Shown here: piece by piece, positions 14,788 through 40,105 of the stretch
How the letters are laid out: every line of letters begins with the position of its first letter
Numbering within the stretch: position 1 is the first letter of the stretch
NCBI GenBank assembly: GCA_963727805.1
Contig: CAVSHF010000003.1
Coordinates: 768,001 to 832,000 of the forward strand
Reading direction: 5' to 3'
Length of the DNA: 64,000 bases
DNA from: an uncultured Nitrospiraceae bacterium
GTDB lineage: Bacteria > Nitrospirota > Thermodesulfovibrionia > Thermodesulfovibrionales > Dissulfurispiraceae
Made by a program: the position numbers and the translations under genes
The notes under the pieces: generated by a model
Seen by the model: only the letters and a program-made list of their open reading frames with translations
Told to the model about the DNA's origin: nothing
The model's database searches: none

Positions 14788-15191
14788 GATTTAATCCGGA
14801 ATAATTCTTGTTTAGAGTGTATTAATAAAGCTATAGCGTGTCAAGCCGCGCTGGAGAGCAAAAGCAACCTTACTTTCTTTGAAAATGAGAAGTGAATCCA
14901 TGTTTTTTAAATGCATTTACAATACATGTAAACAAAAATACTAACTACCGCATCTTAATGAGGCCAAACCGGTCTTACTCAGTAATCACAAAGTCGTCCT
15001 TGACACACTAGAGACTTTAAGCAAGCTCTAAAATATTGTGCTATAGTTGCAGAAAGATAAAAAAAGGGAATTTGCGGCGTTAAGTGTATGCCAAAACAGG
15101 GACAGCTGGAGCAGACAGAAAAACAGAATTACACTGATACAGACACGGACAGATACAGGCCGAAATTAAGCAAGGAAAGGAGGGAAACCTT

Positions 15192-22174: not shown

Positions 22175-22633
22175 TCAATCTTGATCTCCAAGGTTATTAA
22201 TAACATCCTCTTGCTTTGATCCCAAGTGAAGGGCATGCCAATTGCCAAAGCCTTCCGTTGGGTTGAAATACTGACTCTCAGCTTTCTTCTGGTCTGGCGC
22301 TGATAAAGGCAATACGCCGGTAGAAATAGTCAACTCACCCACTACTTTATCAGTATAAAATACGATATGAAGAGTTGCCGAATGTCTCTTGTCGATGAAT
22401 ATTCTACCTCCCGTATCACCTTCGTCCTTTCGGAACAAGCCAGCCCCTAGTAAGCGAACAACATGAGAGTCGTTGTTAATGCCAACCGTGATTCCAGCAA
22501 AGTGCATCGGCCAACATACCGATCCTTTCGGAGAGACTTCGTCAGCTGCTGCATTGCTAGAATAGATCAGAACAAAAAATATACACAATACAGCAATCTT
22601 TCTCATTAAGATATATGGATCCCCTCTAGGCAT
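22175..22633 (-). CDS. Exported hypothetical protein (cassette-like, possibly 3'-truncated)
   Basis: Signal peptide MRKIAVLCIFFVLIYSSNAAA; preceded by boundary repeat. Confidence 0.6.
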   Translation of the reverse strand: MPRGDPYILMRKIAVLCIFFVLIYSSNAAADEVSPKGSVCWPMHFAGITVGINNDSHVVRLLGAGLFRKDEGDTGGRIFIDKRHSATLHIVFYTDKVVGELTISTGVLPLSAPDQKKAESQYFNPTEGFGNWHALHLGSKQEDVINNLGDQD

Positions 22634-22668
22634 TAAGCACGTTTAGCTGATTACAATATAACATTTCT

Positions 22669-22772
22669 TTTTCATCTCTCTGCAACTAAAGCACAATTAT
22701 TAAGTGCTTTCTACTTATAATCGCGAGTCCGCTCGCTACGCTGCAGATGCGATGTTACGACTGGTAATGCTC
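22669..22772 (-). repeat. Cassette-boundary repeat (core ACTT 22713-22716)
   Basis: TTCATCTCTCTGCAACTAAAGCA..CTACTTATAATC-N29-ATGTTAC-N4-GGTAATGCTC. Confidence 0.85.
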
Positions 22773-23019
22773 AAAGCTGAGTTGCCAATTCGCTTACTGT
22801 AGTTGTTGTGTGCACTCCTTTTCATGATCCTCCAGATAATGGCAACAGCTAACCGAGGCACAGGGCAATTCCCCTTCCGGTGGTGGCCTCCGGGAGAAGC
22901 ACCACCGGAGTGCGGCCAAACCAGAAAGAGATAGTAGCATTGCCAGCAGTCCCACGCCGGCCAGCATAATAACTAGGCAGCTACCACTAGCTGCCCTGCC
23001 ACTATCAGAAGCCTGATCG

Positions 23020-23514
23020 TTACTGACCGTGCCTTACACATAACCCACTTACTGTTATCTTCCCCTTATTAGATCCCTTTTTTGTATTAAATTTGCGCAA
23101 CACCGCATCTCGACGCTCTTTGACTCGAAGTTCCAAAATAGATATTGTCGTATCCACCCTTTCTTTTGAAAAGGATTGCTCAAGTAACGAAAGGTTCATG
23201 TTGACACGATATAGCAAATCTTCCAACGGTTCAGGTTCTTGCTTGGAGAGTACTTCATCCAAGGTCTTCCAGCCCATTGCACAGTCAATATCATCAAATT
23301 GATAATACCTATCAGGAAAAATAATTGAGGCCATTTCCAAGAAATCCTGCCCGCGATCCCCGACAAATCTAAAAATTAACGAGCCACATTGAAAAACAGC
23401 CACTGCATTGCCAAAGCTGTGCTTGTCATACTCATGCGACAATAGCCGCATGCCTTCTAACCCCTGGTTATGCATTGAATTTATTATTTTATCTACAAAT
23501 GGGTTTATAGTCAC
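23020..23514 (-). CDS. Hypothetical protein
   Basis: 164-aa ORF in the co-oriented small-gene array. Confidence 0.65.
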   Translation of the reverse strand: MTINPFVDKIINSMHNQGLEGMRLLSHEYDKHSFGNAVAVFQCGSLIFRFVGDRGQDFLEMASIIFPDRYYQFDDIDCAMGWKTLDEVLSKQEPEPLEDLLYRVNMNLSLLEQSFSKERVDTTISILELRVKERRDAVLRKFNTKKGSNKGKITVSGLCVRHGQ

Positions 23515-23622
23515 GAGAAATTTGCCTCTGCTGCAATTATGTCAATGCATGCGGTATTGTCGAAGTAGACGGTAAAATGTTTGAATCTATCAGTTCCCCC
23601 CCTGAGCCCTTGAATGAGGCTG

Positions 23623-23994
23623 TTACAAAGTCATTATTTTCACTTTATTCGAAACAATCCTTATTCTATTAGTGCAAGCTCTACCACTGCCAAAGAGTCG
23701 GAGAGTATACTGTTGGAATTTGCGGTCAGCAAAGACTATTTCTTTTTGCAGCACACGGTCAATTGAGCCTGCACCGATATTATCTATGACATCATTGAAA
23801 TCGATCTTCTTGCTGATATTTTGGACATTGTGAAATTCCGCCCGAACTTTCTGTCTTTTAGCTGCCCAACCCGTACCAGGGTAAATTTCTGCTTCTATTA
23901 CTATTTTCGTTTTATCTTTCTTTGCGATGGGAAAGATATAACAAATACTAACAATATTGCCATCATGCCAGTAAGGTAGTGATATTTGTTTCAT
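23623..23994 (-). CDS. Hypothetical protein (immunity-protein-like N-terminal WHDG motif)
   Basis: 123-aa ORF preceded by boundary repeat. Confidence 0.65.
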   Translation of the reverse strand: MKQISLPYWHDGNIVSICYIFPIAKKDKTKIVIEAEIYPGTGWAAKRQKVRAEFHNVQNISKKIDFNDVIDNIGAGSIDRVLQKEIVFADRKFQQYTLRLFGSGRACTNRIRIVSNKVKIMTL

Positions 23995-24029
23995 TATTCT
24001 TATTTATAACGATTAATATATTGAAGTCC

Positions 24030-24132
24030 TTTTCATCTTCTGCAACTATACCATAATATTTCGGGACTTTCTACTTATAATCTCGATCGCGCCATCCGGA
24101 GTGAAGACGCGATATTTCTAGCGGAAATGCTC
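24030..24132 (-). repeat. Cassette-boundary repeat (core ACTT 24073-24076)
   Basis: TTTTCATCTTCTGCAACTATACCA..CTACTTATAATC-N29-ATATTTC-N4-GGAAATGCTC. Confidence 0.85.
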
Positions 24133-24137
24133 AGGGA

Positions 24138-24614
24138 TTATTGTTGGTTGCCCGTCTTTTTTTCTTTGTGGTTAACCACACGAGTCTGTGCAATTCTATC
24201 ATGAAGTGTCCTTTTTTCGGGATCGAAGAAAGCCATAATATACCCTGAAAATAGTAGTACGGCACTAATGATTTCTGCCAAGAAGCGGTAAAGCGCTGAA
24301 CCAAAGGGAACCGGCTCACCTGATGCCATTACGACTTTAATCTTTAGGATGCGTTTCCCGACGGTCATGCCGGATTTAGAAACCATAATCGTTGAATAGA
24401 GGCAGGCACCGATAATTTGCAGTAATATAAACGAACCTATCATCATCATGAAACGCTCGTATGAATTAACCGAGGCCTGGAGACTATTTGTGGCAAAGCC
24501 TATCGTGGCAATAAATGCGAGCAGTGGATAAATTACAGCTATGATACAGGTATCTATTGCTTTTGCAATTAATCTACGACCAATTCCTGCATATTCAAAT
24601 TGATTCGAATCCAA
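24138..24614 (-). CDS. RDD-family membrane protein
   Basis: YAGIGRRLIAKAID, GMTVGKRILKIKVV, KRTLHDRIAQTRVV. Confidence 0.92.
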   Translation of the reverse strand: MDSNQFEYAGIGRRLIAKAIDTCIIAVIYPLLAFIATIGFATNSLQASVNSYERFMMMIGSFILLQIIGACLYSTIMVSKSGMTVGKRILKIKVVMASGEPVPFGSALYRFLAEIISAVLLFSGYIMAFFDPEKRTLHDRIAQTRVVNHKEKKTGNQQ

Positions 24615-24664
24615 TTATTATTCCTTATTTATGCTTACCGATAAATATACGAAATCCGCTATTC

Positions 24665-24777
24665 CCATCTTACTGCAACTATATCACAATATTACATCGG
24701 AACTAATCGTAGCTTCTACTTAAAATCTCGATGGCGGCAGTCGTAGTCAAGACACTATGTTTCAGTCGGAAATCAAT
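24665..24777 (-). repeat. Cassette-boundary repeat (core ACTT 24718-24721)
   Basis: CATCTTACTGCAACTATATCA..CTACTTAAAATC-N29-ATGTTTC-N4-GGAAATCAAT. Confidence 0.85.
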
Positions 24778-24840
24778 TATATCTTGTGTCTAAAATCAAG
24801 TGGTACGTTTTCAGAGCAGAGATCCGTTTCTGGTCTACCT

Positions 24841-25275
24841 TCAGTTTGTGCTTGTTTCATATTTTGAGATAATAGTCTTTAATAAATCTATTTTAGGATG
24901 TTCGGGATTGTGTTGTGCCAAGGCTGAATATAGCGCATATAAAAAGGAGGCTTTTGAATATCTTTGTTTTTCAAAGATGCGTAGATTATAATCTTCTGAC
25001 TTCATCAATATTTGCAAAGAAAGAAGCCCTCGGTCAATAGCATTCTCAAAATTGTTTTGTCTCATGTAATGACCAAACAGTTCTTCAGTGGCGATCTGAT
25101 AAGTTAAATCATCAGGATATTTTTCGTTCAGGGTCAAAACTTTTTCAAGATAATATATTGCGGAAGTGAAATCGCCGCGATCTCTGCTTCGAAAAGATTT
25201 TCCGAGGAAACGCGCGGCCTTGAATCGTGAATAAAAAGCCTTAATGGAACCGACAAATGCGCTCATTCTTTTCAC
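24841..25275 (-). CDS. Hypothetical helical (TPR-like) protein
   Basis: GDFTSAIYYLEKVL pattern; flanked by boundary repeats. Confidence 0.6.
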   Translation of the reverse strand: MKRMSAFVGSIKAFYSRFKAARFLGKSFRSRDRGDFTSAIYYLEKVLTLNEKYPDDLTYQIATEELFGHYMRQNNFENAIDRGLLSLQILMKSEDYNLRIFEKQRYSKASFLYALYSALAQHNPEHPKIDLLKTIISKYETSTN

Positions 25276-25353
25276 TATAGCACACCTTCATGAACAGAAC
25301 TAATAGTAACTACTTATACTCAACACCCTGGGAGCACAGCGCATTACTCGATG
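25273..25353 (-). repeat. Cassette-boundary repeat interrupted by group II intron (core ACTT 25312-25315; resumes at 25992)
   Basis: CACTATAGCA..TAACTACTTATACTC-N29-ATG|intron|TTTCTTCCGGAA restores motif and spacing exactly. Confidence 0.85.
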
Positions 25354-25991
25354 GTCGAGTAGGCCGGTGGAATCGCACCACCAGCCCCTCACAGATTCCG
25401 TACGTGAACCTCTCGATTCATACGGCTCGTGTCAATCATCAAGTTGAGTCTTTGCAGTCTCAACCATACACATTGAGCGATAGTTCCTCCTGGTCACCCA
25501 GTTGACTGGTACTCTTTGTGGATTGACCCATCCCCTTCCCTCCACGGCTTATTATCACCGCTTCATCGGTACTATTGGACGGTCCGACCCCTTCACCTGC
25601 ATCGATACTTTCCCCCTTCGTTTGCACTTATAGGGTTTTCTCTTAGCATCAGATGAAGAGTTCCCGCGTTCCACACAGGAGCCTAGATCAGCTTCATGCC
25701 GCCTCTATGCCGGACGCCGTTCAGGCAGTAAACAGGTATCTCCTGAACTAATCCTGATGCAAAGTAAGAACATCAGTTTTGACGTCGTCCTTTTCCTTTC
25801 GACACCTCATCAGCGGTTCGCTTACGCTCATCTCTCTGATCCATCCCTGACACGATCTAGTCGTGCCTTTTCCTTTAACGCTCACCACCGGAGCCTTTCG
25901 ACTACAGCAGCTTAAGGTGGGTTGAAGCCTGCTCCTGCAAGCCGGCTTCGAGGGGCCAACCCTCATCTTCCTGTGCAGCCTCGTGGCGCAC
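25354..25991 (-). ncRNA. ORF-less group II intron (638 nt, IIB-like)
   Basis: 5' GTGCG; domain V GAGCCGTATGAATCGAGAGGTTCACGTACGGAATC; domain VI ending CCTACTCGAC; no RT ORF. Confidence 0.92.
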
Positions 25992-26149
25992 TTTCTTCCG
26001 GAATTCATTAAAGACACTTGGTTCATGCACTACCAGCAACCTTGTTTTCGAATTTCCAAAAAGTATGGTGAGTGTCGCTTGTGCGTCTTTAAGCGTGATA
26101 ACAAGATTCCTCAGATAATTGATAGTCAGTATACACGTTTACAAATGCT

Positions 26150-26527
26150 CTAAGGGCAAATACCTATGCAACTAGCACCAGTCAGGCTAGCATTTGAAAT
26201 TATCTTTTTCACAAACTCCAGATACTCAGGTGAAGAAATATCGATCCCGATACCGACAGTTTGTACTCCATTAACAAGGCACTTTGTGTGCCTCTTTACA
26301 ATTCCCTCAAATATAGACCGATCATCTTTGATTGTCAGTGTCAGTGTCAGTGTAACAGGAGTCCCTATAGGTGGAGGCATGCGTCTTGGAATAAGAACAC
26401 CGTGTTTTGAAATATCGATAGTTCTCATTTCATAGGTCATACCGTCATATTCTAATAGTGCACTAAGTCTCCTATCGTACCTCGGACTTCTTCTCTTCTC
26501 CGAACCACCAAACCGTCCCTTTGTCAT
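26150..26527 (-). CDS. PilZ-domain protein
   Basis: EKRRSPRY (RxxxR) and DISKHG (DxSxxG) motifs. Confidence 0.85.
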   Translation of the reverse strand: MTKGRFGGSEKRRSPRYDRRLSALLEYDGMTYEMRTIDISKHGVLIPRRMPPPIGTPVTLTLTLTIKDDRSIFEGIVKRHTKCLVNGVQTVGIGIDISSPEYLEFVKKIISNASLTGASCIGICP

Positions 26528-26999
26528 AACCCTGTCATCTCCGTATTCATTTACTGCTGATTCATTACTATAAAGATATTGTCTCCTAATCGGCTTTGGT
26601 TATCAAGGAGAATTTACAATTAATTGGGGAAAAGTCTTACTTTCTTTATGTTCGGTGATGTGTGTCACGAATGACACCCACAAAATTACCCTTGGGAGGA
26701 GACAACCCTGAGCCGCTGTTTGCCTGAGAGAAAAGTATCAGAAGTTCAAATGCGTATTTTTCGGCGTTTAAGGACACCCATTCCGGATCATCGCAGCACC
26801 ATATCGGACAGTTCATGAGGGCCCCAACCAATCACGTCTAATTTCCTTAGAAGCGAATCAGCTTGTGGAGATTCTCTCTGTGGGGTTCACTTGATACCCA
26901 GCGCTTCATCCTTCTTGCCAAGAATGTTCATTACGAACGTAACTATCGAAATTAGATTCTCAATAACTACTCCTACGCATCAAATATGGTATAACCAAG

Positions 27000-27152
27000 T
27001 TATGGACGGTTGTTAACCGCTCATAAAGGGGCAGGAGGACGTTAACTACAGGGTCATTGAATCCTTTTATCAGTCAGTCCCCTGTCTCCCAAAAGCCATG
27101 ATAAGTTGATAGGGCTAAGAGCTCTTGTAAACATGGAGATATGGTTGGGAGG
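27000..27152 (+). ncRNA. Putative bridge RNA of IS110 copy 1
   Basis: 5' hairpin, then two stems each with a large internal loop and apical hairpin; loop segments GTTAACTAC and TTATCAGT match the target, AGTTGAT and GGAG match the donor. Confidence 0.75.
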
Positions 27153-27189
27153 CATCCTGCCTAAGATCCTATGTGGGAGGTGCTTGGAA

Positions 27190-28386
27190 ATGAGCAAAGC
27201 ATTCATTGGCATCGATGTGTCAAAAGAGCATTCGGCTGCCCAAGGCATCGATAGTGACGAAAAGAAGCTTTTTTACTTAAGGTTTTCGATGGACTCAGCA
27301 GGGTTTGCAGAGCTTCGGACTGCGATTAAAAGATGCGCTGTGAACCTGGATGATATTGCTGTTGCGATGGAGTCCACCGGCTGTTATCATATCAACCTCT
27401 TTTCCTTCCTATGTGCGGAGGGACTTCGTTGTGTGGTAGTAAATCCGCTTCTAATATCCAAGTTTGTTCAGGGGTCATTGAGAAAGACCAAGACAGATAA
27501 GAAGGATGCGATGACCATAGCGCAGTTTCTTCTGAACAATGAAAAGAAGCTTTACTCCGTGACCGAGTCCCAGGATGCACAGGATCTCAGGGATCTGGCC
27601 AGAGAACGGGAGTCTCAATCATGGATGATTGCAACACTGAAGAATGACCTCAAAAGGTTGCTGCAGAGCACTTTCCCTGAGTTTGAGACACTCCGCAAGA
27701 ATATTTACACTAAGACGATGCTGAACTTTCTTACGCAGTATCCTTCGGCCAGATTAATACGGGAGGCAAAGAGAAAAGATATCGACAAAGCGCTCATCTG
27801 TCCCGGGGAGAAGCGAAAGAGAGTACAGATTAGTGCTGACGATCTTATCAATGCGGCAAAGCGTTCGGTGGGCTCAGCTGGTATAGCAAAGGAGCTTATT
27901 GTCTCTGAGAAAGCAACAACGATCCTATACCTTGAGGAAAAGTGTGAGAAGATTACCGAGGAATTGGTGGATGCGTGTGAGGCAACACAGATCGAAGATC
28001 TTGAGATAATGAAGACTCTCGATGGAGTGAAAGACATTACTGGATCGACCTTTTTAGCAGAGATGGGAGAGCTATCCAATTACAAGTCATATAAGAGTTT
28101 GATAGCTTTTATGGGGCTTGATCCATCTACCAATCAGTCAGGGCAGCATGTGGGGCCAAGCAAAATATCGAAACGAGGGAATCGTCATCTGAGGCGAGTC
28201 ATCCATATAATGACAATGTGTTCAATAAAGTCTGACAATATATTCAGACAATACTATCTTAGAAGGATAGCCGAAGGATTGCCTAAGATGAAGGCATTAA
28301 TGGCGACATCTCACAAACTGATCAGAGTGATCTTCTCTATGCTTTCACATAGAACGACTTTTAAAAAGGAGGTGGCTGCTGCATAG
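27190..28386 (+). CDS. IS110-family recombinase/transposase
   Basis: GIDVSK, MESTGCYH, KTKTDKKDA, GLDPSTNQSG, SKRGNRHLR; GGAGG RBS before 27190. Confidence 0.96.
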   Translation: MSKAFIGIDVSKEHSAAQGIDSDEKKLFYLRFSMDSAGFAELRTAIKRCAVNLDDIAVAMESTGCYHINLFSFLCAEGLRCVVVNPLLISKFVQGSLRKTKTDKKDAMTIAQFLLNNEKKLYSVTESQDAQDLRDLARERESQSWMIATLKNDLKRLLQSTFPEFETLRKNIYTKTMLNFLTQYPSARLIREAKRKDIDKALICPGEKRKRVQISADDLINAAKRSVGSAGIAKELIVSEKATTILYLEEKCEKITEELVDACEATQIEDLEIMKTLDGVKDITGSTFLAEMGELSNYKSYKSLIAFMGLDPSTNQSGQHVGPSKISKRGNRHLRRVIHIMTMCSIKSDNIFRQYYLRRIAEGLPKMKALMATSHKLIRVIFSMLSHRTTFKKEVAAA

Positions 28387-28389
28387 TTG

Positions 28390-28449
28390 ACTTATAATCG
28401 TGAGTGCGCCCAAAACGTTCAGGATGCTATGTTACGAATGGTAATGTTT
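28390..28449 (-). repeat. Right arm of boundary repeat abutting IS110 copy 1
   Basis: ACTTATAATC-N29-ATGTTAC-N4-GGTAATG; overlaps the stop codon of 28432..28902. Confidence 0.85.
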
Positions 28450-28902
28450 AAAGTGGAGCTTCGCCTCTTCAGGGGTATAATAAGCACGAAGTATTCCGGA
28501 AATCACAAGGTCCCCCAATAATTCCACGGGCACTGCTTGTCCGACAGAAACGCACTCTCTATGAAAATTGTCACCTGCAAGAAACTGAATTTCGCCATGC
28601 CTTTCAATTTGAATCGCCCCGATCTTGTGAACAATACGTCCCTCTGGCAACACTTCTTTGAGAATGGGAGCAATCGTTTGCGGTGTCAGCGGTATTACAA
28701 TAAATCTACTGTCTTCATTCCATTCGCGTGTGAAGGGCGGTAGGACATTTTCAATGACGCCTGGAATAGTTCCGAAGTGCATCTCGCTCATTGCTTCTAT
28801 ATCGCCTTCAAGTGCAATGTGCGCATCTCCAGCAAGCATGCGCATAAGAGCGGTTAAGAGTGCTGGCTTATCTCTTGGATCGAGGATATAAGCTTTCTTC
28901 AT
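28432..28902 (-). CDS. Hypothetical protein (single-gene cassette-like unit)
   Basis: 156-aa ORF bounded by repeat cores at 28390 and 28954. Confidence 0.7.
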   Translation of the reverse strand: MKKAYILDPRDKPALLTALMRMLAGDAHIALEGDIEAMSEMHFGTIPGVIENVLPPFTREWNEDSRFIVIPLTPQTIAPILKEVLPEGRIVHKIGAIQIERHGEIQFLAGDNFHRECVSVGQAVPVELLGDLVISGILRAYYTPEEAKLHFKHYHS

Positions 28903-28904
28903 TT

Positions 28905-29013
28905 TTTCTGAAACTATAGCATACTTTTCTCACCAGAACGAATGGTAGCTCCTACTTAAAATCAACATCGTGGGGACACGTCTCATTGTACAATGTTTCT
29001 ACCTGAAATAGAG
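28905..29013 (-). repeat. Cassette-boundary repeat (core ACTT 28954-28957)
   Basis: TCTGAAACTATAGCA..CTACTTAAAATC-N29-ATGTTTC-N4-TGAAAT. Confidence 0.82.
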
Positions 29014-29100
29014 AGGCGTACCCTATAATCAGCAACAACCCCTGTATTTAAGAATTTTGGGATATTGAAATTCCAAACAAGATCTAAGGCCGCCGGGAAA

Positions 29101-30615
29101 TTACTCAACATCGTACCTTTTCATCCAGTTTGAGAGCGTCTGGTAATTTGGGAGGCCCAGGAGTTTGGCCATTTCAGTCTTGTTCTTGCCAGCCTCTTCA
29201 GAGGCGCGTTTCAGATAGTGGCGGGCTACATCCGACATAAGGGCTGCAAGGCTGAACCCGCTCCCCAGGCTGCGGTTGAGAATTCTGCCTTTGCCCTTTT
29301 CAGTGCTGCTCAGAGGAAACAGTGCAGCGCGTATATCATCGGCCTCAATTGTCCGGCCGGGCGTCCATATCGCTGCCCGTGAAATAGTGTTGAAAAGCTC
29401 GCGGATGTTTCCAGGCCAAGGATGTTGCTGTAGAATATGCCTAGCTCCCGCGGAAAAGGTTTTTCTCTCCCAGCCCGGTTTGCCCTCGAATTGCCCATTT
29501 ATTTTTATAAGGATATCGTCGATCAGTGGACTGATATCACCGCGCCGTTCGCGCAGTGGAGGCAGCTGCAGCACTCCCACTGCTATGCGATGGAACAGGT
29601 CCTCCCTGAAGCGGCCCGAAAAAACCTCCTCTATAAGGTTGCTGTTGGTTGCCGCGATAATCCTTACATCGATGTCCTGGCATTTACTGGATCCCACCTG
29701 CGTGACTACGCCCTCTTCTATGGCACGCAAGAGTTTCACTTGGGCCAATAGTGGGAGCTCTCCGATCTCATCAAGAAATAACGTACCTTCGTTGGCCTCG
29801 ATAAAATGGCCGTCACGCGCGCTCGACGCCCCCGTAAATGCTCCTTTAGTATGCCCGAAGAACTCCGATTCAACCAGTTCCGGAGGGATAGAACCGCAGT
29901 TGACTGCAACAAAGGGCTTATCGTATCTCGGACTCGATGTGTGTATTGCCCGTGCGAAAAGCTCTTTGCCAGTCCCGGATTCTCCCTGGAGAAGGACTGG
30001 CACATCGTGTACAGCAAGTCTTCGAGCCTGTGCAATAACCCTTTCCATGGCCTTGCACCGATGGATTATGGAAGCGAATTCAGGCGACTCAGGCGGCAGC
30101 CCACGGGTCATCTTCAGGATTTCATCATCCGGATACCGGGACTCGTCATTGCCATTTGAAGCGGTTATATCGAAGGGCAATGAAACGGTTCGGACACCGT
30201 ATTTTCGTGAAGTCTGGATGATCTCAGCGGGATGGACTGTTTTTGACAAAAGTATCCATGCTGCCACCATGGCGAGTGATCCGGAGCTCAGATGGAATGT
30301 CTTGCGGAGGGATTTTTCCCCGAGTCTGCGGTTCACATCTCTTATAGCTGAGACAGCAGCATCATAGGTTTCCTTGAACTGATCATAAGCAGACAGATCG
30401 ACATGGTATTTCATGACCTTGATCCGGGTCACTGACTTGAGCCAGTCAATATATCCTTGCTCCTCTTCTTCAGCGAAAACGGACAGCAGGACGATATGTG
30501 TAAAGGGCCGATTAGTCAAGGCTTCCCCGATCGGCCCCAGATTTTCTCCGTGTTTTCTCCCGCAAGCGGCGAGATCGTTTTTACCGATCCAGGCAAACAA
30601 GACGTTGTTCTTCAT
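29101..30615 (-). CDS. Sigma-54-dependent transcriptional activator with RtcR-like N-terminal domain
   Basis: GESGTGKE, GAFTGA, LFLDEIGE, WPGNIREL, C-terminal HTH. Confidence 0.92.
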   Translation of the reverse strand: MKNNVLFAWIGKNDLAACGRKHGENLGPIGEALTNRPFTHIVLLSVFAEEEEQGYIDWLKSVTRIKVMKYHVDLSAYDQFKETYDAAVSAIRDVNRRLGEKSLRKTFHLSSGSLAMVAAWILLSKTVHPAEIIQTSRKYGVRTVSLPFDITASNGNDESRYPDDEILKMTRGLPPESPEFASIIHRCKAMERVIAQARRLAVHDVPVLLQGESGTGKELFARAIHTSSPRYDKPFVAVNCGSIPPELVESEFFGHTKGAFTGASSARDGHFIEANEGTLFLDEIGELPLLAQVKLLRAIEEGVVTQVGSSKCQDIDVRIIAATNSNLIEEVFSGRFREDLFHRIAVGVLQLPPLRERRGDISPLIDDILIKINGQFEGKPGWERKTFSAGARHILQQHPWPGNIRELFNTISRAAIWTPGRTIEADDIRAALFPLSSTEKGKGRILNRSLGSGFSLAALMSDVARHYLKRASEEAGKNKTEMAKLLGLPNYQTLSNWMKRYDVE

Positions 30616-30672
30616 ATGGAAATCATATACAAACTTTCTTGTATTTTACAAGATATTTTATCAAAGTAATCC

Positions 30673-31753: not shown

Positions 31754-31934
31754 ACATATTCATTTTATAAGTTATAAGCCCAATTTTTTTGAAGGTAATG
31801 CGAACAATAATAAAAGGCATGCAGAACAGCGTGACATATGTCATTACATAACCAGCTAATGCTTCAACAAGCAGAACTCCATGCCATTTCATTTTAAACC
31901 ATCCCATAACACCTTCCTCTGGTACTGCAGACAT
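31743..31934 (-). CDS. Small hypothetical membrane protein
   Basis: Hydrophobic 63-aa ORF in the same operon-like run. Confidence 0.4.
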   Translation of the reverse strand: MSAVPEEGVMGWFKMKWHGVLLVEALAGYVMTYVTLFCMPFIIVRITFKKIGLITYKMNMFEK

Positions 31935-32078
31935 CAGTTTTAATAAGTATCTTTCACCGGGTCTCCTGCAAAAAAGCTCCTTTTTCTACTGCTGCCCCGG
32001 ATATATAGCGGTGGAGGACGATGCCCCTCCCATCTGTTTCTTCTATCCTCTGCTTAAATACTTATTGCAACTGTAATA

Positions 32079-32813
32079 TCACGCATAGAAATCAGCATGG
32101 ACATCCTGCCCGTCATAATATGCTGACATATGTGCGGAGGCCATTGTATCGGCTTCGACAGTTTCAAAGGCAGTACCGGGATCCATGACGATGAGATATT
32201 CGGAGCCGCTCACCTGTTGGCTCGAGATGTCTGATTCCCGGCATTCAACAGCTAACAGTTTTACACTCTCACCCAAGAGAGCAGGAGAACAAAACTTTCC
32301 GAGATACCCAGAAGGGATGGAAACGTCCCGTCCCTGAACACTTTTAACTATCTCGTCGTCACGAGGAACAAATGGTCGATTATCTAATATCCTGAAGAAT
32401 GACAGCTTCCATCTTCTCCCTGTGTCAAGTTTTACATGCAGAAGACCTCTCGAGTCGCCTCCACGGGGAGACACTATAAGAAAGTCTCCCCTAGCCGTCA
32501 TTGTGACGCAACATTCCAATAATGCTGTGTATTCAGCGACACGAGTCTTTCTAATCATGTGCCGGTCATTACATGCCTGATCGCAGCTTGCACGAAACTT
32601 CTTTCGCGGACATCCATGATCAAGCTGATTATACCGACACTGCCACCCATCTTCCCTGAAAGCGGTTTGCAGAGAGCTTGCCAGTCTGGTACTGATGCCT
32701 ATTCTGGTATATGGACCGGGCCCCCCCGCGCCTAACCCAATATGCGGATAGGGTAAGGGAATGATAGGGATACCCTTTGTCACCCGATCTCCTTCTAACT
32801 CAAAGCATCTCAT
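32079..32813 (-). CDS. Hypothetical protein
   Basis: ATG 32813 with AGGAG RBS, downstream of a sigma-54 promoter. Confidence 0.65.
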   Translation of the reverse strand: MRCFELEGDRVTKGIPIIPLPYPHIGLGAGGPGPYTRIGISTRLASSLQTAFREDGWQCRYNQLDHGCPRKKFRASCDQACNDRHMIRKTRVAEYTALLECCVTMTARGDFLIVSPRGGDSRGLLHVKLDTGRRWKLSFFRILDNRPFVPRDDEIVKSVQGRDVSIPSGYLGKFCSPALLGESVKLLAVECRESDISSQQVSGSEYLIVMDPGTAFETVEADTMASAHMSAYYDGQDVHADFYA

Positions 32814-32864
32814 TGAATCTCTCCTTTGTTGATCGGACTCCTTGTGCAAGCTATTCATAGTAAA

Positions 32865-32879
32865 GCAATAGACATGCCA
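32865..32879 (-). promoter_or_regulatory. Sigma-54 (-24/-12) promoter
   Basis: TGGCAT-GTCTA-TTGC on the minus strand. Confidence 0.75.
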
Positions 32880-33256
32880 GATCATTCAGATTTACTATCT
32901 GGATCACCGAGAGAATACCAAGAGTAGGTTTAATCAGCCTTATATGCAGCTATCAGGTAGCACTAACTTCTAAACAATAGTCACGGCAACGGTAAAAGTC
33001 TTTCCGGTAAATCCTTAGTCAGTGCAAGTGCTTTGCACTATTACCGACAATAGAGAGTTGCCTGTAGTAGTAGCTTCTCCCCTGCCATTCCCATAAACGA
33101 TCGGAAAATACAAACTTTATTGTATGTTTACAAAATATTTTGTGACGTCGTGGCTGATAAGTCTAAATAGATTCCTGCAACGTAATCTCCCGTGAGACGT
33201 GGAGAGGCCTTTTGAATAAGCATTGATTGCACATTAAGGAACGATTAACTGATAAG

Positions 33257-33271
33257 TGGCACAGGTTTTGC
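33257..33271 (+). promoter_or_regulatory. Sigma-54 (-24/-12) promoter
   Basis: TGGCAC-AGGTT-TTGC upstream of the methyltransferase. Confidence 0.75.
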
Positions 33272-33356
33272 TCAATAATGGACAGACTTAAATCCGCATA
33301 ACATAGGATTCATTGTAATAAGAGCTGTTGTTCATGGAGCTTGGTGGGGTACTGTA

Positions 33357-34133
33357 TTGAAATATCATGATAACATCGCAACAGCGTTTAGCTCGGCCAG
33401 AAGAGCTGACGCCAGAATCATCGATACGCTGATCTCCGCACTCGACGTAAAACGAGGCGCTCACATCGCCGATATTGGTGCAGGGACGGGAAACTATTCC
33501 AACGCCTTGGCTGACAGTGGATTGTATATGTCCGCCATTGAACCATCGGAAGCTATGCTCCGGCAAGCAATAAAACACAAAAACGTGAAATGGTATCTGG
33601 CTAGGGCCGAGGCGTTACCCTTGTATAGAGAATCTTTGGACGGCATCATCTCTGTGTCGGCAATTCATTTTTTTTCAAACCTGATGGATGCGAGCAAAGA
33701 GATGGCGCGTGTTTGTGCGTCCGGCAGAATCATCATATTCACCTGCGATCCAAGGTTGTCCGAAGAATTTTGGCTTTCTGAGTATTTCCCCGAGATGATC
33801 CGGAGGCGCTATTGCACCTATGCCAATATTTTTCAAATGATGAAAATAATAGAAGGCTTGACTGCTCGCAAAGGAATGATTATACGATTCCCTGTTCCCC
33901 ATGACATCACTGATACATTTGCCGGGTCCGGATGGAGACGACCTTGGCTATATTTGGATGACCAAGTTCGTAATTCCATGTCGGAATTTACCATGGCATC
34001 GCAAGACGAAGTTGACAGGGGATTGATTAAATTAGCAAGGGATATTGAGAGTGGAGAATGGACAAAAAAAAATAGCTGCCTGCTTGAGATGAACGATTAC
34101 GACCTCGGATACAGGTTTATCGTACTTTCATGA
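33357..34133 (+). CDS. Class I SAM-dependent methyltransferase
   Basis: IADIGAGTGNY, AIEPSEAM, AEALP motifs. Confidence 0.92.
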   Translation: MKYHDNIATAFSSARRADARIIDTLISALDVKRGAHIADIGAGTGNYSNALADSGLYMSAIEPSEAMLRQAIKHKNVKWYLARAEALPLYRESLDGIISVSAIHFFSNLMDASKEMARVCASGRIIIFTCDPRLSEEFWLSEYFPEMIRRRYCTYANIFQMMKIIEGLTARKGMIIRFPVPHDITDTFAGSGWRRPWLYLDDQVRNSMSEFTMASQDEVDRGLIKLARDIESGEWTKKNSCLLEMNDYDLGYRFIVLS

Positions 34134-34340
34134 TCAGAATGCCTCACTGCCAAAAGCATATCACACTGCAATGAAGAATGCACCCCCTTTACTTATGGCT
34201 TTGGCTAATACGCAAACCCGACCACTGCCACTTGATACCCAGCGCTTCATCCTTCTTGCCAAGAATGTTCATTACGAACGTAACTATCGAAATTAGATTC
34301 TCAATAACTACTCCTACGCATCAAATATGGTATAACCAAG

Positions 34341-34493
34341 TTATGGACGGTTGTTAACCGCTCATAAAGGGGCAGGAGGACGTTAACTACAGGGTCATTG
34401 AATCCTTTTATCAGTCAGTCCCCTGTCTCCCAAAAGCCATGATAAGTTGATAGGGCTAAGAGCTCTTGTAAACATGGAGATATGGTTGGGAGG
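34341..34493 (+). ncRNA. Putative bridge RNA of IS110 copy 2
   Basis: Same sequence as 27000-27152. Confidence 0.75.
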
Positions 34494-34530
34494 CATCCTG
34501 CCTAAGATCCTATGTGGGAGGTGCTTGGAA

Positions 34531-35727
34531 ATGAGCAAAGCATTCATTGGCATCGATGTGTCAAAAGAGCATTCGGCTGCCCAAGGCATCGATAGTGACG
34601 AAAAGAAGCTTTTTTACTTAAGGTTTTCGATGGACTCAGCAGGGTTTGCAGAGCTTCGGACTGCGATTAAAAGATGCGCTGTGAACCTGGATGATATTGC
34701 TGTTGCGATGGAGTCCACCGGCTGTTATCATATCAACCTCTTTTCCTTCCTATGTGCGGAGGGACTTCGTTGTGTGGTAGTAAATCCGCTTCTAATATCC
34801 AAGTTTGTTCAGGGGTCATTGAGAAAGACCAAGACAGATAAGAAGGATGCGATGACCATAGCGCAGTTTCTTCTGAACAATGAAAAGAAGCTTTACTCCG
34901 TGACCGAGTCCCAGGATGCACAGGATCTCAGGGATCTGGCCAGAGAACGGGAGTCTCAATCATGGATGATTGCAACACTGAAGAATGACCTCAAAAGGTT
35001 GCTGCAGAGCACTTTCCCTGAGTTTGAGACACTCCGCAAGAATATTTACACTAAGACGATGCTGAACTTTCTTACGCAGTATCCTTCGGCCAGATTAATA
35101 CGGGAGGCAAAGAGAAAAGATATCGACAAAGCGCTCATCTGTCCCGGGGAGAAGCGAAAGAGAGTACAGATTAGTGCTGACGATCTTATCAATGCGGCAA
35201 AGCGTTCGGTGGGCTCAGCTGGTATAGCAAAGGAGCTTATTGTCTCTGAGAAAGCAACAACGATCCTATACCTTGAGGAAAAGTGTGAGAAGATTACCGA
35301 GGAATTGGTGGATGCGTGTGAGGCAACACGGATCGAAGATCTTGAGATAATGAAGACTCTCGATGGAGTGAAAGACATTACTGGATCGACCTTTTTAGCA
35401 GAGATGGGAGAGCTATCCAATTACAAGTCATATAAGAGTTTGATAGCTTTTATGGGGCTTGATCCATCTACCAATCAGTCAGGGCAGCATGTGGGGCCAA
35501 GCAAAATATCGAAACGAGGGAATCGTCATCTGAGGCGAGTCATCCATATAATGACAATGTGTTCAATAAAGTCTGACAATATATTCAGACAATACTATCT
35601 TAGAAGGATAGCCGAAGGATTGCCTAAGATGAAGGCATTAATGGCGACATCTCACAAACTGATCAGAGTGATCTTCTCTATGCTTTCACATAGAACGACT
35701 TTTAAAAAGGAGGTGGCTGCTGCATAG
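34531..35727 (+). CDS. IS110-family recombinase/transposase
   Basis: Same motifs as copy 1. Confidence 0.96.
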   Translation: MSKAFIGIDVSKEHSAAQGIDSDEKKLFYLRFSMDSAGFAELRTAIKRCAVNLDDIAVAMESTGCYHINLFSFLCAEGLRCVVVNPLLISKFVQGSLRKTKTDKKDAMTIAQFLLNNEKKLYSVTESQDAQDLRDLARERESQSWMIATLKNDLKRLLQSTFPEFETLRKNIYTKTMLNFLTQYPSARLIREAKRKDIDKALICPGEKRKRVQISADDLINAAKRSVGSAGIAKELIVSEKATTILYLEEKCEKITEELVDACEATRIEDLEIMKTLDGVKDITGSTFLAEMGELSNYKSYKSLIAFMGLDPSTNQSGQHVGPSKISKRGNRHLRRVIHIMTMCSIKSDNIFRQYYLRRIAEGLPKMKALMATSHKLIRVIFSMLSHRTTFKKEVAAA

Positions 35728-35730
35728 TTG

Positions 35731-35790
35731 ACTTATAATCCACATCTAAACACATAATAATTATTCCGATGTTTACAACCGGAAGTCAAG
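35731..35790 (-). repeat. Right arm of boundary repeat abutting IS110 copy 2
   Basis: ACTTATAATC-N28-ATGTTTAC-N4-GGAAGTCAA; GGAA at the same offset as in other copies. Confidence 0.7.
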
Positions 35791-35948
35791 ATAGCAGCAA
35801 AATACATGCTCGTCAGCGGCAGGATTTAAGAGCGAGAATCGGGGCAACATGACCTTCGCGGCTTGCCTGCGGATTTCGGTGATGGCGACCAGCTGTTTCG
35901 GTCGATGGCGACCACTGCGAGAACGTCGTCGCACTGGGGTTAGTCATA

Positions 35949-36701
35949 TTACTCGGAGTGGTCGCGATGCGTCAAGTTTTGCTTCTTTTTCCGCATCGAC
36001 TCTCCCTTCAGCGTGATCTTGTGCGCAGCGTGAATGATCCTATCGAGTATGGCATCGGCCAGCGTCGGTTCTCCGATCAACTCAAACCACTTTGAAACAG
36101 GATACTGGCTCGTTATTAGCGTTGATCTGAGTCCGTGCCGATCCTCTATGACTTCCAGGAAGTCCCTTCTCTCTGCCTCATTCATTGAAGATAAGCCCCA
36201 ATCGTCGATAACGAGAAGCTCTGTCTTGGCTATCTTGTTCAAGAGTTTCAGGTAACTGCCGTCTCCTCTCGCTATTGCGAGCTCCCTGAAGAGCCGTGGA
36301 TAGCGGTAGTAGATTGCCGTCATTCCTTCACGGCAGGCTTTTTGTGCAAATGCTTCAGCGAGGTAGCTCTTGCCAATGCCCGTAGGCCCCGTGATGATAA
36401 CGTTGTGGTGGTTCTTGATCCACTCGCAGTTTGCCAAAGAGAGAATAAGAGACTTGTCGAGACCCCTTGAGTGCCTGTAGTCAACGTCCTCAATAGTCGC
36501 TTGCCTTTTTAGTTTCGCCGCCTTGAGCCTTATGGCGAGTTTTCTGTTTTCCCGGTACAGCCACTCTCTTTCTACGATCATGGCGAAGCGGTCATCAAAG
36601 GACAGCTCCGTCATGGAGGGCTGCTCACGTTGCTCATTGAAGCCCGTAACCATTCCGCTCAACTTCATATGGTAGAGCTTCTCTACTGTCTGGTTGTTCA
36701 T
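35949..36701 (-). CDS. istB: IS21-family helper ATPase
   Basis: GPTGIGKS, LLVIDDWG, ADAILDRI, GESMR. Confidence 0.96.
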   Translation of the reverse strand: MNNQTVEKLYHMKLSGMVTGFNEQREQPSMTELSFDDRFAMIVEREWLYRENRKLAIRLKAAKLKRQATIEDVDYRHSRGLDKSLILSLANCEWIKNHHNVIITGPTGIGKSYLAEAFAQKACREGMTAIYYRYPRLFRELAIARGDGSYLKLLNKIAKTELLVIDDWGLSSMNEAERRDFLEVIEDRHGLRSTLITSQYPVSKWFELIGEPTLADAILDRIIHAAHKITLKGESMRKKKQNLTHRDHSE

Positions 36702-36718
36702 AAACCTCCTTGTGTTGT

Positions 36719-38263
36719 TCAGTTGTAGTAATCGCTGCCCCTGATGTTGTCGTGATAGACGATAGCTGTCACCTCCTTGTCTTCGGTTATCGGTAGCTGG
36801 TCAATGCCATGCTCAAGGATTGAGTTAACGCTTCTGTATGAGAACGACCTGATAAGGAGTGCCCTTTGAGCTGCGGCCTCAAGCCGCTCGGCAGAGTATC
36901 GTTTGCCAAGTCTCATGATTCCGAGGCATGAGCGGTATCCCTGTTCGGGATGCGGCCTGGCGAGCATGATCTGTTCAAGCAGTTCTGCAGTATGCGGGCC
37001 TACTGTACTTGCAGCCCAATGGATGATCCTCGATGGCGACCACTCAAGATAACGCTGATGGGACTTGGGTCTATGCTCTGCGATCGTCGTGAAGCCTCCC
37101 TTCTGGAAGCTTCTTTGATGCAGGGCTACTCGCCTGGATTTGAATAGAATCTCTACTGTATTCATAGTCATCCTGACGTCAACCTGCTTTCTAACAAGTT
37201 GATAAGGAACGCTATAGCAGTGACCTTCGACCTCGATGTGATGGTCGATGTTGACGGTGGCTTTCTTCCACTGGGCATATTGGTATCGTTCCAGTGGAAG
37301 CGGTCTCAATGCCGGCTTGTCGATCGCCTCAAACATCTCGCGTCTGCATCCGGGCAGCTTTTTGAAGGGACGATTGTTGAGTCGCTCAAGGAGCTCTCGG
37401 ATTGCTTCATTCAACTCGCGCAGGCTGAAGAAGGTTCGGTTTCTAAGGGCCGCAAGTATCCATCGAGTAACAACGAGCACGGCTGATTCGCCCTTGGCTT
37501 TGTCCTTTGGCTTTGCTGCTCTGGCAGGGATGATGACTGTGCCATAATGGGCGGAGAACTCTTGGTATGTGGCGTTCAGTTCCGGCTCGTATCGACAGGC
37601 CCTAGTCACTGCAGCCTTGAGATTGTCAGGCACCATAATCATAGGGACCCCACCTATAAACTCCAGGGCGTTTATATTGCAGCTGATCCAGGACGGGATG
37701 TCTTGACGCAGCACCGCTTCGGCATAAGTATAGTTGCTGGCACCAAGTACTGAGACGAAGATCTGGGCTTCGTAAACTTCCGTCGTCAGGGGATTGATGA
37801 TGGGGATGGTTTTGCCCGCGAAGTCCAGGAAGAGCTTTTCGCCTGCACGATGAACCTGTCGCATGCTGACTTCAACGGTCTCGGCCCAGCGCCGATAATG
37901 CTCGCAGAACTGAGTATATTGATACCCGTCGGGGTACTTCTCTTTGTACTCCTGCCATAGGAGATAGAGCGTTACGCCCTTCTTCCTCAGTTCCCTGTGG
38001 AGTTCATCCATTGCCGGAAGTGGCCGGACTGTATCCCGGGCAACAGATTCCTTGCCGAACAGCAATTGCTCAAGTCCGGTGTCGTCGAGATCAGAGGGCA
38101 GCGGCCAGGTGATCGCCGCCTGTTCCGCCTTCTCAAGATACTTTACGACGGTGCTGTGCGAAACCTTCACACAGCGGGCAATCTGCCGCTTGGGTAGCTT
38201 CAGGTCGAAGTGTAGTCTTAATATCTCTCTCGTCTTTTGCATGGTTATGGTCGGGGTGGACAT
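36719..38263 (-). CDS. istA: IS21-family DDE transposase
   Basis: GEKLFLDFAG, VPDNLK, KPKDKAKGE, HDNIRG; GGAGG RBS before 38263. Confidence 0.96.
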   Translation of the reverse strand: MSTPTITMQKTREILRLHFDLKLPKRQIARCVKVSHSTVVKYLEKAEQAAITWPLPSDLDDTGLEQLLFGKESVARDTVRPLPAMDELHRELRKKGVTLYLLWQEYKEKYPDGYQYTQFCEHYRRWAETVEVSMRQVHRAGEKLFLDFAGKTIPIINPLTTEVYEAQIFVSVLGASNYTYAEAVLRQDIPSWISCNINALEFIGGVPMIMVPDNLKAAVTRACRYEPELNATYQEFSAHYGTVIIPARAAKPKDKAKGESAVLVVTRWILAALRNRTFFSLRELNEAIRELLERLNNRPFKKLPGCRREMFEAIDKPALRPLPLERYQYAQWKKATVNIDHHIEVEGHCYSVPYQLVRKQVDVRMTMNTVEILFKSRRVALHQRSFQKGGFTTIAEHRPKSHQRYLEWSPSRIIHWAASTVGPHTAELLEQIMLARPHPEQGYRSCLGIMRLGKRYSAERLEAAAQRALLIRSFSYRSVNSILEHGIDQLPITEDKEVTAIVYHDNIRGSDYYN

Positions 38264-38562
38264 TGTGCCTCCTTGATGAATGGTCAAGAAGAAACAATGA
38301 CTTATAACCCCCTGCTATATCCAGCTAAGACGACGCTCTCGTCAGCTCCTATATGACCTCTCGTTTCGGACTACGACCAAAAGTGGTCGCGCTCAGTCCG
38401 AAATGGGTGGTCGCGATACTCCGAAACAGGTGGTCGCGATGGACCGAAATGACTGGTCGCGATGCTCCGAAATACGCATGCCCCCCAGATAAGACTGTCA
38501 TGGCTATATAGGCCGACTTGCTAATACAAATATCAAGTGTGCTTCTCTTTACACTGTCTCAT

Positions 38563-39216
38563 TTAAGTTCCAACATTCAGGTAAACCAAAAATAAATTAA
38601 CAAATGCATGAACTACAATGGAAGCAATAAGCCCTCCTCTCATGTAAACATAGGTGAATATGACAGAATACAAAAAGATAAATAAAAGATTTATGTCAAA
38701 TACCCCCCATATGCCATGAGGCAAAACAAACAAAACGGATGAAAATAATATAGCCTGGACGTTACTCAAGCTTTTTTTGAGGATTTCAAAAAAATAGCCT
38801 CTAGCTAAAGTTTCCTCAAGCACAGGGCCAGCGACAATAAGTAAAAATAGGGTTGGGAAAAAATAGGGATATTTTATCTCGAGTATTTCCTGTACAAAAG
38901 GGATGTTTTTACCGAAAACCAGAATACTTGTCACCGCAACAAACCAACTTGCGACTATGCCCAAAAACACATAGATAAGCATTTCTCGACTTATTGCAAT
39001 TTTAGGAACAACTCTAGTCCTAATCGCCAGGTAAACAATTGCCACTGGCGATGATACTGCAGACGATGATAACATCGCTATTGTTAGCATCGGAATCATT
39101 GGGAACGCATCTGCTATTTTAGGCGCAACATAATAGCCACCTAATGCATGAGCTACAAGTAAAATGGCAAAACCTTCTATGACAATACTGATATTGTTAC
39201 GGTTAGATGAATTCAA
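38563..39216 (-). CDS. CPBP (CAAX/Abi) family intramembrane protease
   Basis: PVLEETLARG, FVLPH, HAFVN motifs. Confidence 0.9.
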   Translation of the reverse strand: MNSSNRNNISIVIEGFAILLVAHALGGYYVAPKIADAFPMIPMLTIAMLSSSAVSSPVAIVYLAIRTRVVPKIAISREMLIYVFLGIVASWFVAVTSILVFGKNIPFVQEILEIKYPYFFPTLFLLIVAGPVLEETLARGYFFEILKKSLSNVQAILFSSVLFVLPHGIWGVFDINLLFIFLYSVIFTYVYMRGGLIASIVVHAFVNLFLVYLNVGT

Positions 39217-39277
39217 TAATCGGGCTCAACTTTCCAAAAAATATAGAACCTTTTAACATCAGATATGACAGTGCTTG

Positions 39278-39340
39278 CTATTTAATAATCAAGAGTGCAT
39301 CCAATACTGAGAAGATGCTATGTTTCAACTTGCAATCAAT
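39278..39340 (-). repeat. Cassette-boundary repeat, variant core
   Basis: CTATTTAATAATC-N29-ATGTTTC-N4-TGCAATCAAT; internal TGCATC..GATGC hairpin; close to the 28390 copy. Confidence 0.75.
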
Positions 39341-39449
39341 GGTGCTTCCGGAAAGCCCCGCTTGAAGGTGAGAAATCCTAGTCTTTTTCTACAGCCTCGA
39401 ATATTGGAATTCTGCGGTGCGGCGGCGCTACATCCGGGGCAATAATTAG

Positions 39450-39983
39450 TTATGGCGTACAAACTATCAGCTTACCTTTGGTATCGATGCAGAACCAATC
39501 GCCACCCTTCAGTTCATGATACTCGCCGGTGGAATCTACTGGTACCGTTCTGCATCCGTTGCATACAAGAGCCTTTCCCTCCTCAAATGCTTCGCATCCG
39601 TCAAACTGCGGAATGATAGGGCCTCTACCATCCATCGTTGCATAACCGCATTTTCCTCCGCGCTCAAAACGAACAAAGTCATTATGGAAATTATCTGGGC
39701 CATTGTCGACGGGATAAACGCCCGCCACCACAACCTTGCCCTGCCTGTTCACATACATCCAGCCTTGCACTTTCCCATAAACGATCGCCAAGTTGCCATT
39801 GAATTTAAGATTAGCCAGATGAAATCGCTTAACTTGAAGCCACTCTTTCCCACGTTGTTCGAGGCAATTCTTATGCTCTGAGTAACCATCCGCATCTGAA
39901 TACCAGCAGGGTAACCCGCCCGCTGTAGAAATTCCAACAGCTGCTGTGATGATCACGGCAACGAGAATCGAAGTTCTTTTCAT
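39450..39983 (-). CDS. Exported WG-repeat protein
   Basis: Signal peptide; WMYVNRQGK, DNGPDNF, GKCGY..PQFD..AFEEGKA.VC. Confidence 0.82.
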   Translation of the reverse strand: MKRTSILVAVIITAAVGISTAGGLPCWYSDADGYSEHKNCLEQRGKEWLQVKRFHLANLKFNGNLAIVYGKVQGWMYVNRQGKVVVAGVYPVDNGPDNFHNDFVRFERGGKCGYATMDGRGPIIPQFDGCEAFEEGKALVCNGCRTVPVDSTGEYHELKGGDWFCIDTKGKLIVCTP

Positions 39984-40007
39984 AGTACGCCTTAACAATG
40001 TCATTAA

Positions 40008-40105
40008 TGTTCATCTTTCAGCAACTATAGCTCATATTTGTTCCTACTTAGAGTCATTCCTGTCAATTTTCTGCCGTGTGTGAAGGATTCTTTTGGAAAT
40101 CATCG
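40008..40105 (-). repeat. Cassette-boundary repeat, degenerate (core ACTT 40046-40049)
   Basis: TTCATCTTTCAGCAACTATAGC..CCTACTTAGAGTC-N39-GGAAATCA. Confidence 0.65.

Follow-up and report, generated by a model that had tools for sequence, protein, structure and literature searches.

Integrons, the textbook route for stacking and swapping single genes, rely on a single enzyme family and on folded sites. The dif modules on Acinetobacter plasmids have pdif sites (XerC/XerD), which are 28 bp long with an 11-6-11 arrangement of inverted arms and alternate in orientation, and the cer/psi and res sites combine a crossover core, itself with two inverted arms, with accessory sequence on one side. Here we describe a 58-bp repeat unit from a stretch of 64,000 nucleotides (hereafter the window; positions 768,001 to 832,000 of contig CAVSHF010000003.1, assembly GCA_963727805.1) of a 3.9-Mb Nitrospirota genome. 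This one-directional repeat is a marker of the joints between small accessory-gene modules, and we put at about an even chance the proposal that its copies are recombination sites of a family of Xer-like recombinases, bounding modules that can be mobilised. Coordinates prefixed C3, C4 or C5 refer to contigs of this genome (G000), and other G numbers denote relatives, one genome per species. A limited search of the literature on integron-like or Xer-run cassette arrays and on Nitrospirota integrons found no description of the repeat, nor any Xer-run cassette array reported from Nitrospirota.

Read on the plus strand, the unit comprises an L box (CTACTTAWAATC), about 28 variable nucleotides and an R box of the form TWTGTTWC-N4-GGWAAT, an arrangement seen at all nine sites in the window. 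The first-pass annotation, made from the window's letters and open reading frames (ORFs), had listed nine repeats of this kind, and our reading of the sequence, in which repeat families D2-D5 group the copies, places the unit at every one of the nine coordinates, in a single orientation and 3' of minus-strand genes. Its fixed length and spacing likewise hold in an alignment of 29 copies (A1), where the indels amount to merely 1-2 nt. The stop codon of the ORF at 28432-28902 lies, as had been noticed, inside the ATGTTAC motif, and by reading a TGA or TAA is found within a few nucleotides of the R box in most copies. The copies in the window are:

22711..22768, plus strand: 58-bp unit of subfamily A, L box CTACTTATAATC and R box ATGTTACGACTGGTAAT
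24071..24128, plus strand: 58-bp unit immediately 3' of the RDD stop codon
24716..24773, plus strand: 58-bp unit
25310..25352, plus strand: L box plus spacer of an intron-interrupted unit, whose R-box remainder lies at 25992-26006
28390..28445, plus strand: 58-bp unit in which an IS110 end takes the place of the left edge
28952..29009, plus strand: 58-bp unit
35731..35786, plus strand: 58-bp unit, a weaker match
39279..39336, plus strand: 58-bp unit, L box CTATTTAATAATC
40044..40100, plus strand: terminal unit, complete but divergent (ACTTAGAGTC ... GGATTCTTTTGGAAAT), without an attached gene and adjoining tag

No unit was found near tag in three relatives. Scans with sequence models, which the first-pass annotation had proposed, uncovered further copies both in this genome and in its relatives. 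A profile built from seven copies recovered 28 copies genome-wide at E<1e-3 and 33 after iteration, and a sequence-only covariance model (R1) recovered 34, so that 33-34 copies are clear overall; 17 occurrences of the 12-mer CTACTTAWAATC in the 3.9-Mb genome compare with about 0.9 expected by chance, by our own arithmetic. With the covariance model the repeat was found in 10 of 68 genomes of the bacterial family, the relatives' copies being spread over three genera, and the two repeat-richest genomes hold 34 and 18 copies. The arrays are scattered over several loci, with units one or two genes apart within them, and three dispersed copies that we examined adjoin IS3, IS110 or sensor genes. By crude ORF calls the nearest upstream ORF has the same sense as the unit in 26 of 34 cases and ends within 150 nt of it in 17. 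A pattern scan of metagenomes gave mostly chance matches; two of the 80 loci fetched were true members of the repeat family by the model and added nothing. Two weak matches of the profile in minus orientation, at 11269-11328 (E 0.65) and 11508-11541 (E 0.29) of the window, may be decayed units of opposite orientation.

The unit is sharply delimited. In the information profile of 31 copies conservation sets in abruptly at the C of CTACTT and stops at position 57, and each of the 40 positions to the left of the core carries at most 0.3 bits, i.e. there is no conserved left arm. The imperfect hairpin that had been described in the same register of most copies is unsupported, the copies folding no better than shuffled sequence: RNAalifold found no consensus structure in 29 copies, the proposed stem is paired in 53% of cells while shuffles reach 51% (58 of 500 scored as high), and single-stranded DNA folding of 20 copies gave z-scores from -2.3 to +1.3 with a mean of about -0.2. 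A small hairpin of TTWC with GWAA is paired in 84% of cells against 82% in shuffles, and this pairing reflects conservation, not covariation. There is no terminator-like T run or palindrome in the units.

Comparisons within the genome and across species place the units at the joints of modules and show that homology breaks in or beside the ACTT/CTACTTA core, which bears out the earlier view of them as punctuation between unrelated genes. The module genes and the best-defined module in the window are:

22175..25275, minus strand: small module genes encoding proteins of 152 aa, 164 aa and 123 aa, an RDD protein (24138-24614) and a weak TPR-like protein (24841-25275)
26150..26527, minus strand: PilZ module gene
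38563..39216, minus strand: Rce1/CPBP-like module gene
39282..40050, minus strand: WG-repeat gene module, consisting of unit, gene and then a promoter-like GCTATAGTTGCTGAAAGATG

The WG-repeat module recurs at C5:565657-566421 with 96% identity over 765 nt, and the homologous stretch runs from within one L box to immediately past the CTACTTA of the next unit. Similarly, window positions 22714-23065 match the sequence from C5:65433 onward at 93%, beginning at CTTATAATC; a segment of G001 that is 95% identical to this genome starts at AGTAG; and the homology of the G005 flank stops just past the L box. Because these breakpoints together bracket the core, the exchange point is placed inside CTACTTA. 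Copies in G010 and G004 occupy orthologous places and have different left flanks. A promoter-like GCTATAGTTGCAGAAAGATG lies directly before the start codon at some eight or nine places, most of them module starts. Elsewhere in the window, the module-start motif GTGCTATAGTTGCAGAAAGAT was observed at 15022-15062, upstream of a plus-strand ankyrin-repeat gene (15192-15701), with a near-identical copy at C3:87702. As we envisage it, a single module would consist of the promoter-like TGnTATAGT, a gene and a 3' unit; an Xer-like tyrosine recombinase would bind the R and L boxes, crossover would take place within CTACTTA of duplex sites, and modules would be excised, moved as circles and re-inserted.

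No tyrosine recombinase is present among the window ORFs. The first-pass annotation had suggested that a cognate recombinase could lie elsewhere, and a candidate is indeed encoded at C5:27489-28460, the single intact tyrosine recombinase of the genome besides the XerC/D-like genes and an IS91 composite. Its PF00589 domain scores 68.5 bits (cut-off 27.1), and the closest named model is XerA/integron-integrase NF040815, with 119.5 bits and under its cut-off of 220; it belongs neither to IntI (50 against 265) nor to the XerA, XerC or XerD equivalogs (76 against 330 for XerD). Residues that we take to be the catalytic R, K, HxxR, H and Y can be read in its sequence. The gene lies in a 1.7-kb unit that is common to G003, another species, at 90-95% identity, the homology starting in a degenerate repeat unit and ending about 10 nt from an ACTT core. 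Homologues or fragments with at least 49% identity are found in eight of the ten repeat-positive and seven of the 58 repeat-negative genomes of the bacterial family, but the genomes are related to one another and the comparison is not an independent statistical test. Many of the copies in relatives are pseudogenes, and among the positives an intact recombinase occurs only in the two repeat-richest genomes. Two other proteins were set aside as candidates. One is a 363-aa ORF product at C3:91776, with an integrase-like domain and an uncharacterised C-terminal extension that by eye we guess to be TOBE/Mop-like. The other, a 314-aa tyrosine recombinase present in eight copies, is part of an IS91 composite that inserts at the core, and it co-occurs poorly with the repeat (three of ten repeat-positive against six of 58 repeat-negative genomes at E<=1e-40).

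The surroundings of the relatives of this recombinase bear a resemblance to the unit. We examined 80 loci encoding such relatives (L221-L300), mostly of 62-96% identity in Nitrospirota and of 49-65% in Syntrophales and allies, often with several per genome. In many of them the stop codon is directly followed by ATTACC-N4-GAAAC-AAAG-(A)GGTCTT and, further on, by CGATT(A/C)TT(T/C)AAGTG, an R-box...L-box region that is similar to the G000 unit read in gene sense and that accompanies this gene family in two phyla. For the 54 relatives at 49-65% identity, which come mostly from Syntrophales, Syntrophorhabdales and other deltaproteobacterial metagenome-assembled genomes, the 143 nt after the stop were scanned with the G000 repeat profile, yielding 36 matches at E<10 against 0-6 in twenty shuffles; 22 of these 54 relatives have an R-box match no further than about 50 nt past the stop. 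In a MAFFT alignment the G000 units align with these regions over both ATTACC-N4-GAAACAAAG-GTCTT and CGATTATNNAAGT, with a spacer 26 nt shorter in G000. In Syntrophales the recombinase gene together with this region forms a discrete element of about 1 kb, and a single genome has two copies of it with 99.5% identity over 1040 nt. By eye, 13-bp inverted repeats surround the recombinase gene (CCCCAAAGACCTC/GAGGTCTTTGGGG in Syntrophales and TGCAGACCCYGGC/GCCRGGGTCTGCA in Nitrospirota), which may represent either the ends of an element or an invertible switch. A TATAAT-like box was also observed just outside the left 13-bp repeat.

Fixed points of the unit serve as insertion sites for three kinds of mobile element: an IS110-family element, the IS91 composite and a group II intron. 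Those in the window, with a further insertion sequence, are:

25353..25991, minus strand: ORF-less group II intron of 639 nt in the sense of the cassette genes (Rfam RF01999, 109.8 bits; RF00029, 45.4 bits)
26888..28389, plus strand: IS110-family element, copy 1, with ACTT at both ends, inserted at the core of the 28390 unit
34229..35730, plus strand: IS110-family element, copy 2, at the same point of another unit
35868..38478, minus strand: IS21-family element (IstA/IstB), with three identical copies in the genome

The two identical IS110-family copies abut the units at 28390 and 35731, at ACTT in both cases, and a public contig from run X5 joins an IS110 end at the core of the unit at 40046. 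The group II intron lies just after GWAA(C) of the R box at two loci, the one in the window and C5:34745; a scan of the window at Rfam gathering thresholds yielded no models besides these two for group II introns and no match on the repeats; Rfam contains no attC model. The IS91-type composite (2.56 kb, eight copies) encodes a Y2 transposase along with the 314-aa recombinase, and in at least six of the eight copies its end, ...GTCCTACT, stands by eye against the remainder of an L box followed by spacer and R box. Three identical genes for a 148-aa Y1 transposase lie in or beside repeat arrays (C4:21836, C5:32290 and C5:421392), nested with a 1.7-kb repeated element; one of them truncates a unit, and they look like an IS200-type element. 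As for the IS21-family element, run X2 shows its empty site (joint 35863|38479), in run X3, from another population, an insertion of the same IS21 lies close to the RDD gene start (24631-24637), and three tandem 23-nt repeats (CCGAAATGNNTGGTCGCGATNCT) at its end (38398-38472) are probably IS21 multiple terminal repeats. In the contigs of run X1, the public run with the best share of the stretch, there is almost no depth over 28338-34340, between the IS110 copies, with both sides covered; this block may be absent in the X1 population. Lastly, a catalase-peroxidase gene elsewhere in the window (11821-14016) is 96.6% identical over 1147 nt to that of G079, a member of another genus, far above its neighbouring genes, which suggests that it was transferred recently.

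The layout, a gene followed by a co-oriented 3' site whose distal end forms the boundary, is that of integron cassettes, and one might ask whether these are divergent attC sites left behind by a lost integrase (a CALIN array). Integron integrases are common in relatives (18 of 61 genomes, two of the same genus included), and the sites are hit by an IS110-family element and by a group II intron, as attC sites are targeted by group IIC-attC introns, which occupy the bottom strand, opposite to the cassette genes (PMC3001079). The intron in the window, by contrast, is in gene sense. Nor does this genome encode an IntI: TIGR02249 scores 86.5 bits at best (cut-off 265). In the set of 37 genomes common to both scans, one of eight repeat-positive and ten of 29 repeat-negative ones have IntI, so that it is not enriched with the repeat. 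The repeat profile had no match in six fetched intI loci of relatives, where several arrays end at contig ends, and the integron of one IntI-bearing relative has canonical ...ATAAC...GTTAT... hairpin sites with folding energies of -13 to -23 kcal/mol, quite unlike units that fold as shuffled sequence does. Complementarity of the RYYYAAC/GTTRRRY kind was not seen on reading the 29-copy alignment, the ends CTACTTAWAATC and GGWAAT being non-complementary. The CALIN reading is largely refuted and we consider it very improbable. The units are equally distinct from dif, in agreement with the first-pass annotation, which had held the motif to be neither attC nor dif: they contain no 28-bp site with two inverted arms of about 11 bp, and the likely chromosomal dif site, GAGTCCGATAAGATATATTATGTTAAAT at C3:516959-516986, differs from them. 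A half-similar dif-like site was observed at C5:890031, and GAGTCCG and ATGTTA give subfamily A a likeness to the host dif that we judged to be chance, the spacing being 8 nt too long.

Another alternative is an intergenic element of the REP type that would serve the host 3' of stop codons (through protein binding, an mRNA 3'-end function or as an upstream promoter element); its mere abundance would have made it a landing pad for IS110, IS91 and group II elements, and it would have no recombinase of its own. IS110-family elements do home to REP sequences. The proximity of stop codons to the R box in most copies fits such an element, as do the persistence of orthologous copies (G004/C3:994757, G010/C3:93145 and G066/a degenerate copy at C3:122400) and the homing of three unrelated mobile elements to fixed points. 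Yet the units show no stable imperfect-palindrome hairpin of the REP/BIME type, no stable fold and no T run; they are confined to accessory, IS-rich DNA, judging from the three dispersed copies examined, and to 10 of the 68 genomes; and the linkage to a recombinase gene and the core-to-core duplication would go unexplained. We regard this alternative as distinctly unlikely. Less so, and unlikely rather than implausible, is the idea that the units are miniature relics without a gene, or solo ends, of the 1-kb recombinase element with its 13-bp inverted repeats and R/L-box region, and that they accumulated in accessory DNA, the cassette-like appearance and the core breakpoints being by-products of later homologous recombination between units or of lodged insertion sequences. 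It fits the facts almost as well as the recombinase-site proposal does. The recombinase unit of Syntrophales is a discrete element with inverted repeats on its flanks, the G000 unit aligns with its 3' region and has sharp edges on both sides, and many recombinase genes in relatives are pseudogenes; moreover, near-identical units (89-96%) with unrelated flanks on both sides occur at C3:2252512, C4:19132 and C5:50493, and one gene can be found with different units. Relics of this kind would be harder to reconcile with the lack of the target-site duplications that a MITE would have (the longest word shared by the flanks averages 4.19 against 4.15 +/- 0.17 in controls, 27 copies), with the co-orientation of units and genes in arrays spaced every one or two genes, and with the movement of a whole gene plus unit from core to core. 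The two explanations overlap and are not exclusive, because relics of the recombinase element are themselves its sites.

Several observations weigh against taking the units as active recombination sites of the Xer-like enzyme. The orthologue shared by G001 and G000 (95%) and the RDD paralogues have only the R box in common, i.e. the same gene is followed by different units, and because one gene can carry different units, unit and gene are not a fixed pair. Clean core-bounded cases, within or between genomes, number only three. Public runs hold parts of the stretch as contigs (best shares 0.41 and 0.25), and in these contigs neither an excision product nor a circle nor a clean gain or loss of a cassette was seen, all joints being explained by IS21, IS110 or intron differences, a result that carries no weight as to absence; while the earlier suggestion of a recombinase elsewhere has found its candidate, the excision and shuffling of cassettes by a dedicated enzyme stands as a proposal. 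The candidate is the lone intact copy in the genome, and the site has no conserved arm left of the core, unlike a classical two-arm tyrosine-recombinase site. No arrays were found beside the homologues in G024, G026, G007 and G089 in five fetched loci, two of which (L081 and L083) reach a contig end, with two weak partial matches in G089 (E 0.015 and 0.031). The single R-box matches after the stops of recombinase relatives are weak, the best E-value being 0.008, and in the reverse comparison a profile built from the Syntrophales post-stop regions only had no match in G000 at E<=1. The first-pass annotation had spoken of an unrecognised cassette system. Its reading of the repeats as recombination sites is favoured by our analysis; the wording goes too far, since in a widespread small recombinase element the 3' site region resembles the units, which may be its relics.

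Recombination at the units by an Xer-like enzyme would fit into a fuller and more tentative picture, a form of gene capture analogous to that of integrons and operating without IntI or folded attC sites, in which a small, mobile Xer-like recombinase found throughout anaerobic Nitrospirota and Syntrophales recombines one-sided duplex 58-bp sites at CTACTTA; it would thereby stack and exchange single-gene modules with promoters of their own and carry them from array to array and from species to species. As a whole we hold this picture to be possible and somewhat doubtful. If true, it would represent a second, independent solution to cassette capture, with a different enzyme lineage, one-sided duplex sites and promoters borne by the modules; cassette-type capture would then have arisen more than once, here in hard-to-culture anaerobes that are not flagged by integron-finding software. 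The unit is in any case a marker of the exchange of accessory DNA in these genomes and a homing target shared by IS110 (of the bridge-RNA type), the IS91 composite and the group II intron.

Set beside known systems, the unit resembles REP sequences as an abundant short intergenic repeat 3' of genes with a fixed core that is hit by IS110-family elements; it differs from them in having no palindrome or GTAG-headed hairpin, in being restricted to accessory arrays and in its linkage to a recombinase gene. With MITEs and small tyrosine-recombinase elements it shares a resemblance to the 3' site region of an element of about 1 kb, whose gene-less copies far outnumber gene-bearing ones, whereas it has neither terminal inverted repeats nor target duplications and its copies are co-oriented and delimit modules. 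It is reminiscent of cer/psi and res in being an asymmetric site with the exchange point at one end and additional conserved DNA confined to one side, where direct repeats would favour deletion, while it lacks their second conserved arm. Like pdif, it bounds accessory-gene modules with a short site and is tied to Xer-type tyrosine recombinases; unlike pdif, it is 58 bp long, conserved on one side and found in a single orientation, and its candidate enzyme is a mobile Xer-like protein and not the host XerC/D. From integrons and CALIN arrays it is set apart by the absence of IntI, of a folded single-strand site, of AAC/GTT inverse cores and of an attI or Pc next to an integrase, by the several modules with a promoter-like TGnTATAGT of their own, by arrays dispersed over several loci and by an intron in gene sense. 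With these same systems it has in common co-oriented, stacked single-gene modules, a terminal site of about 60 bp with the exchange point at its far end, and sites that are hit by IS110-family elements and a group II intron.

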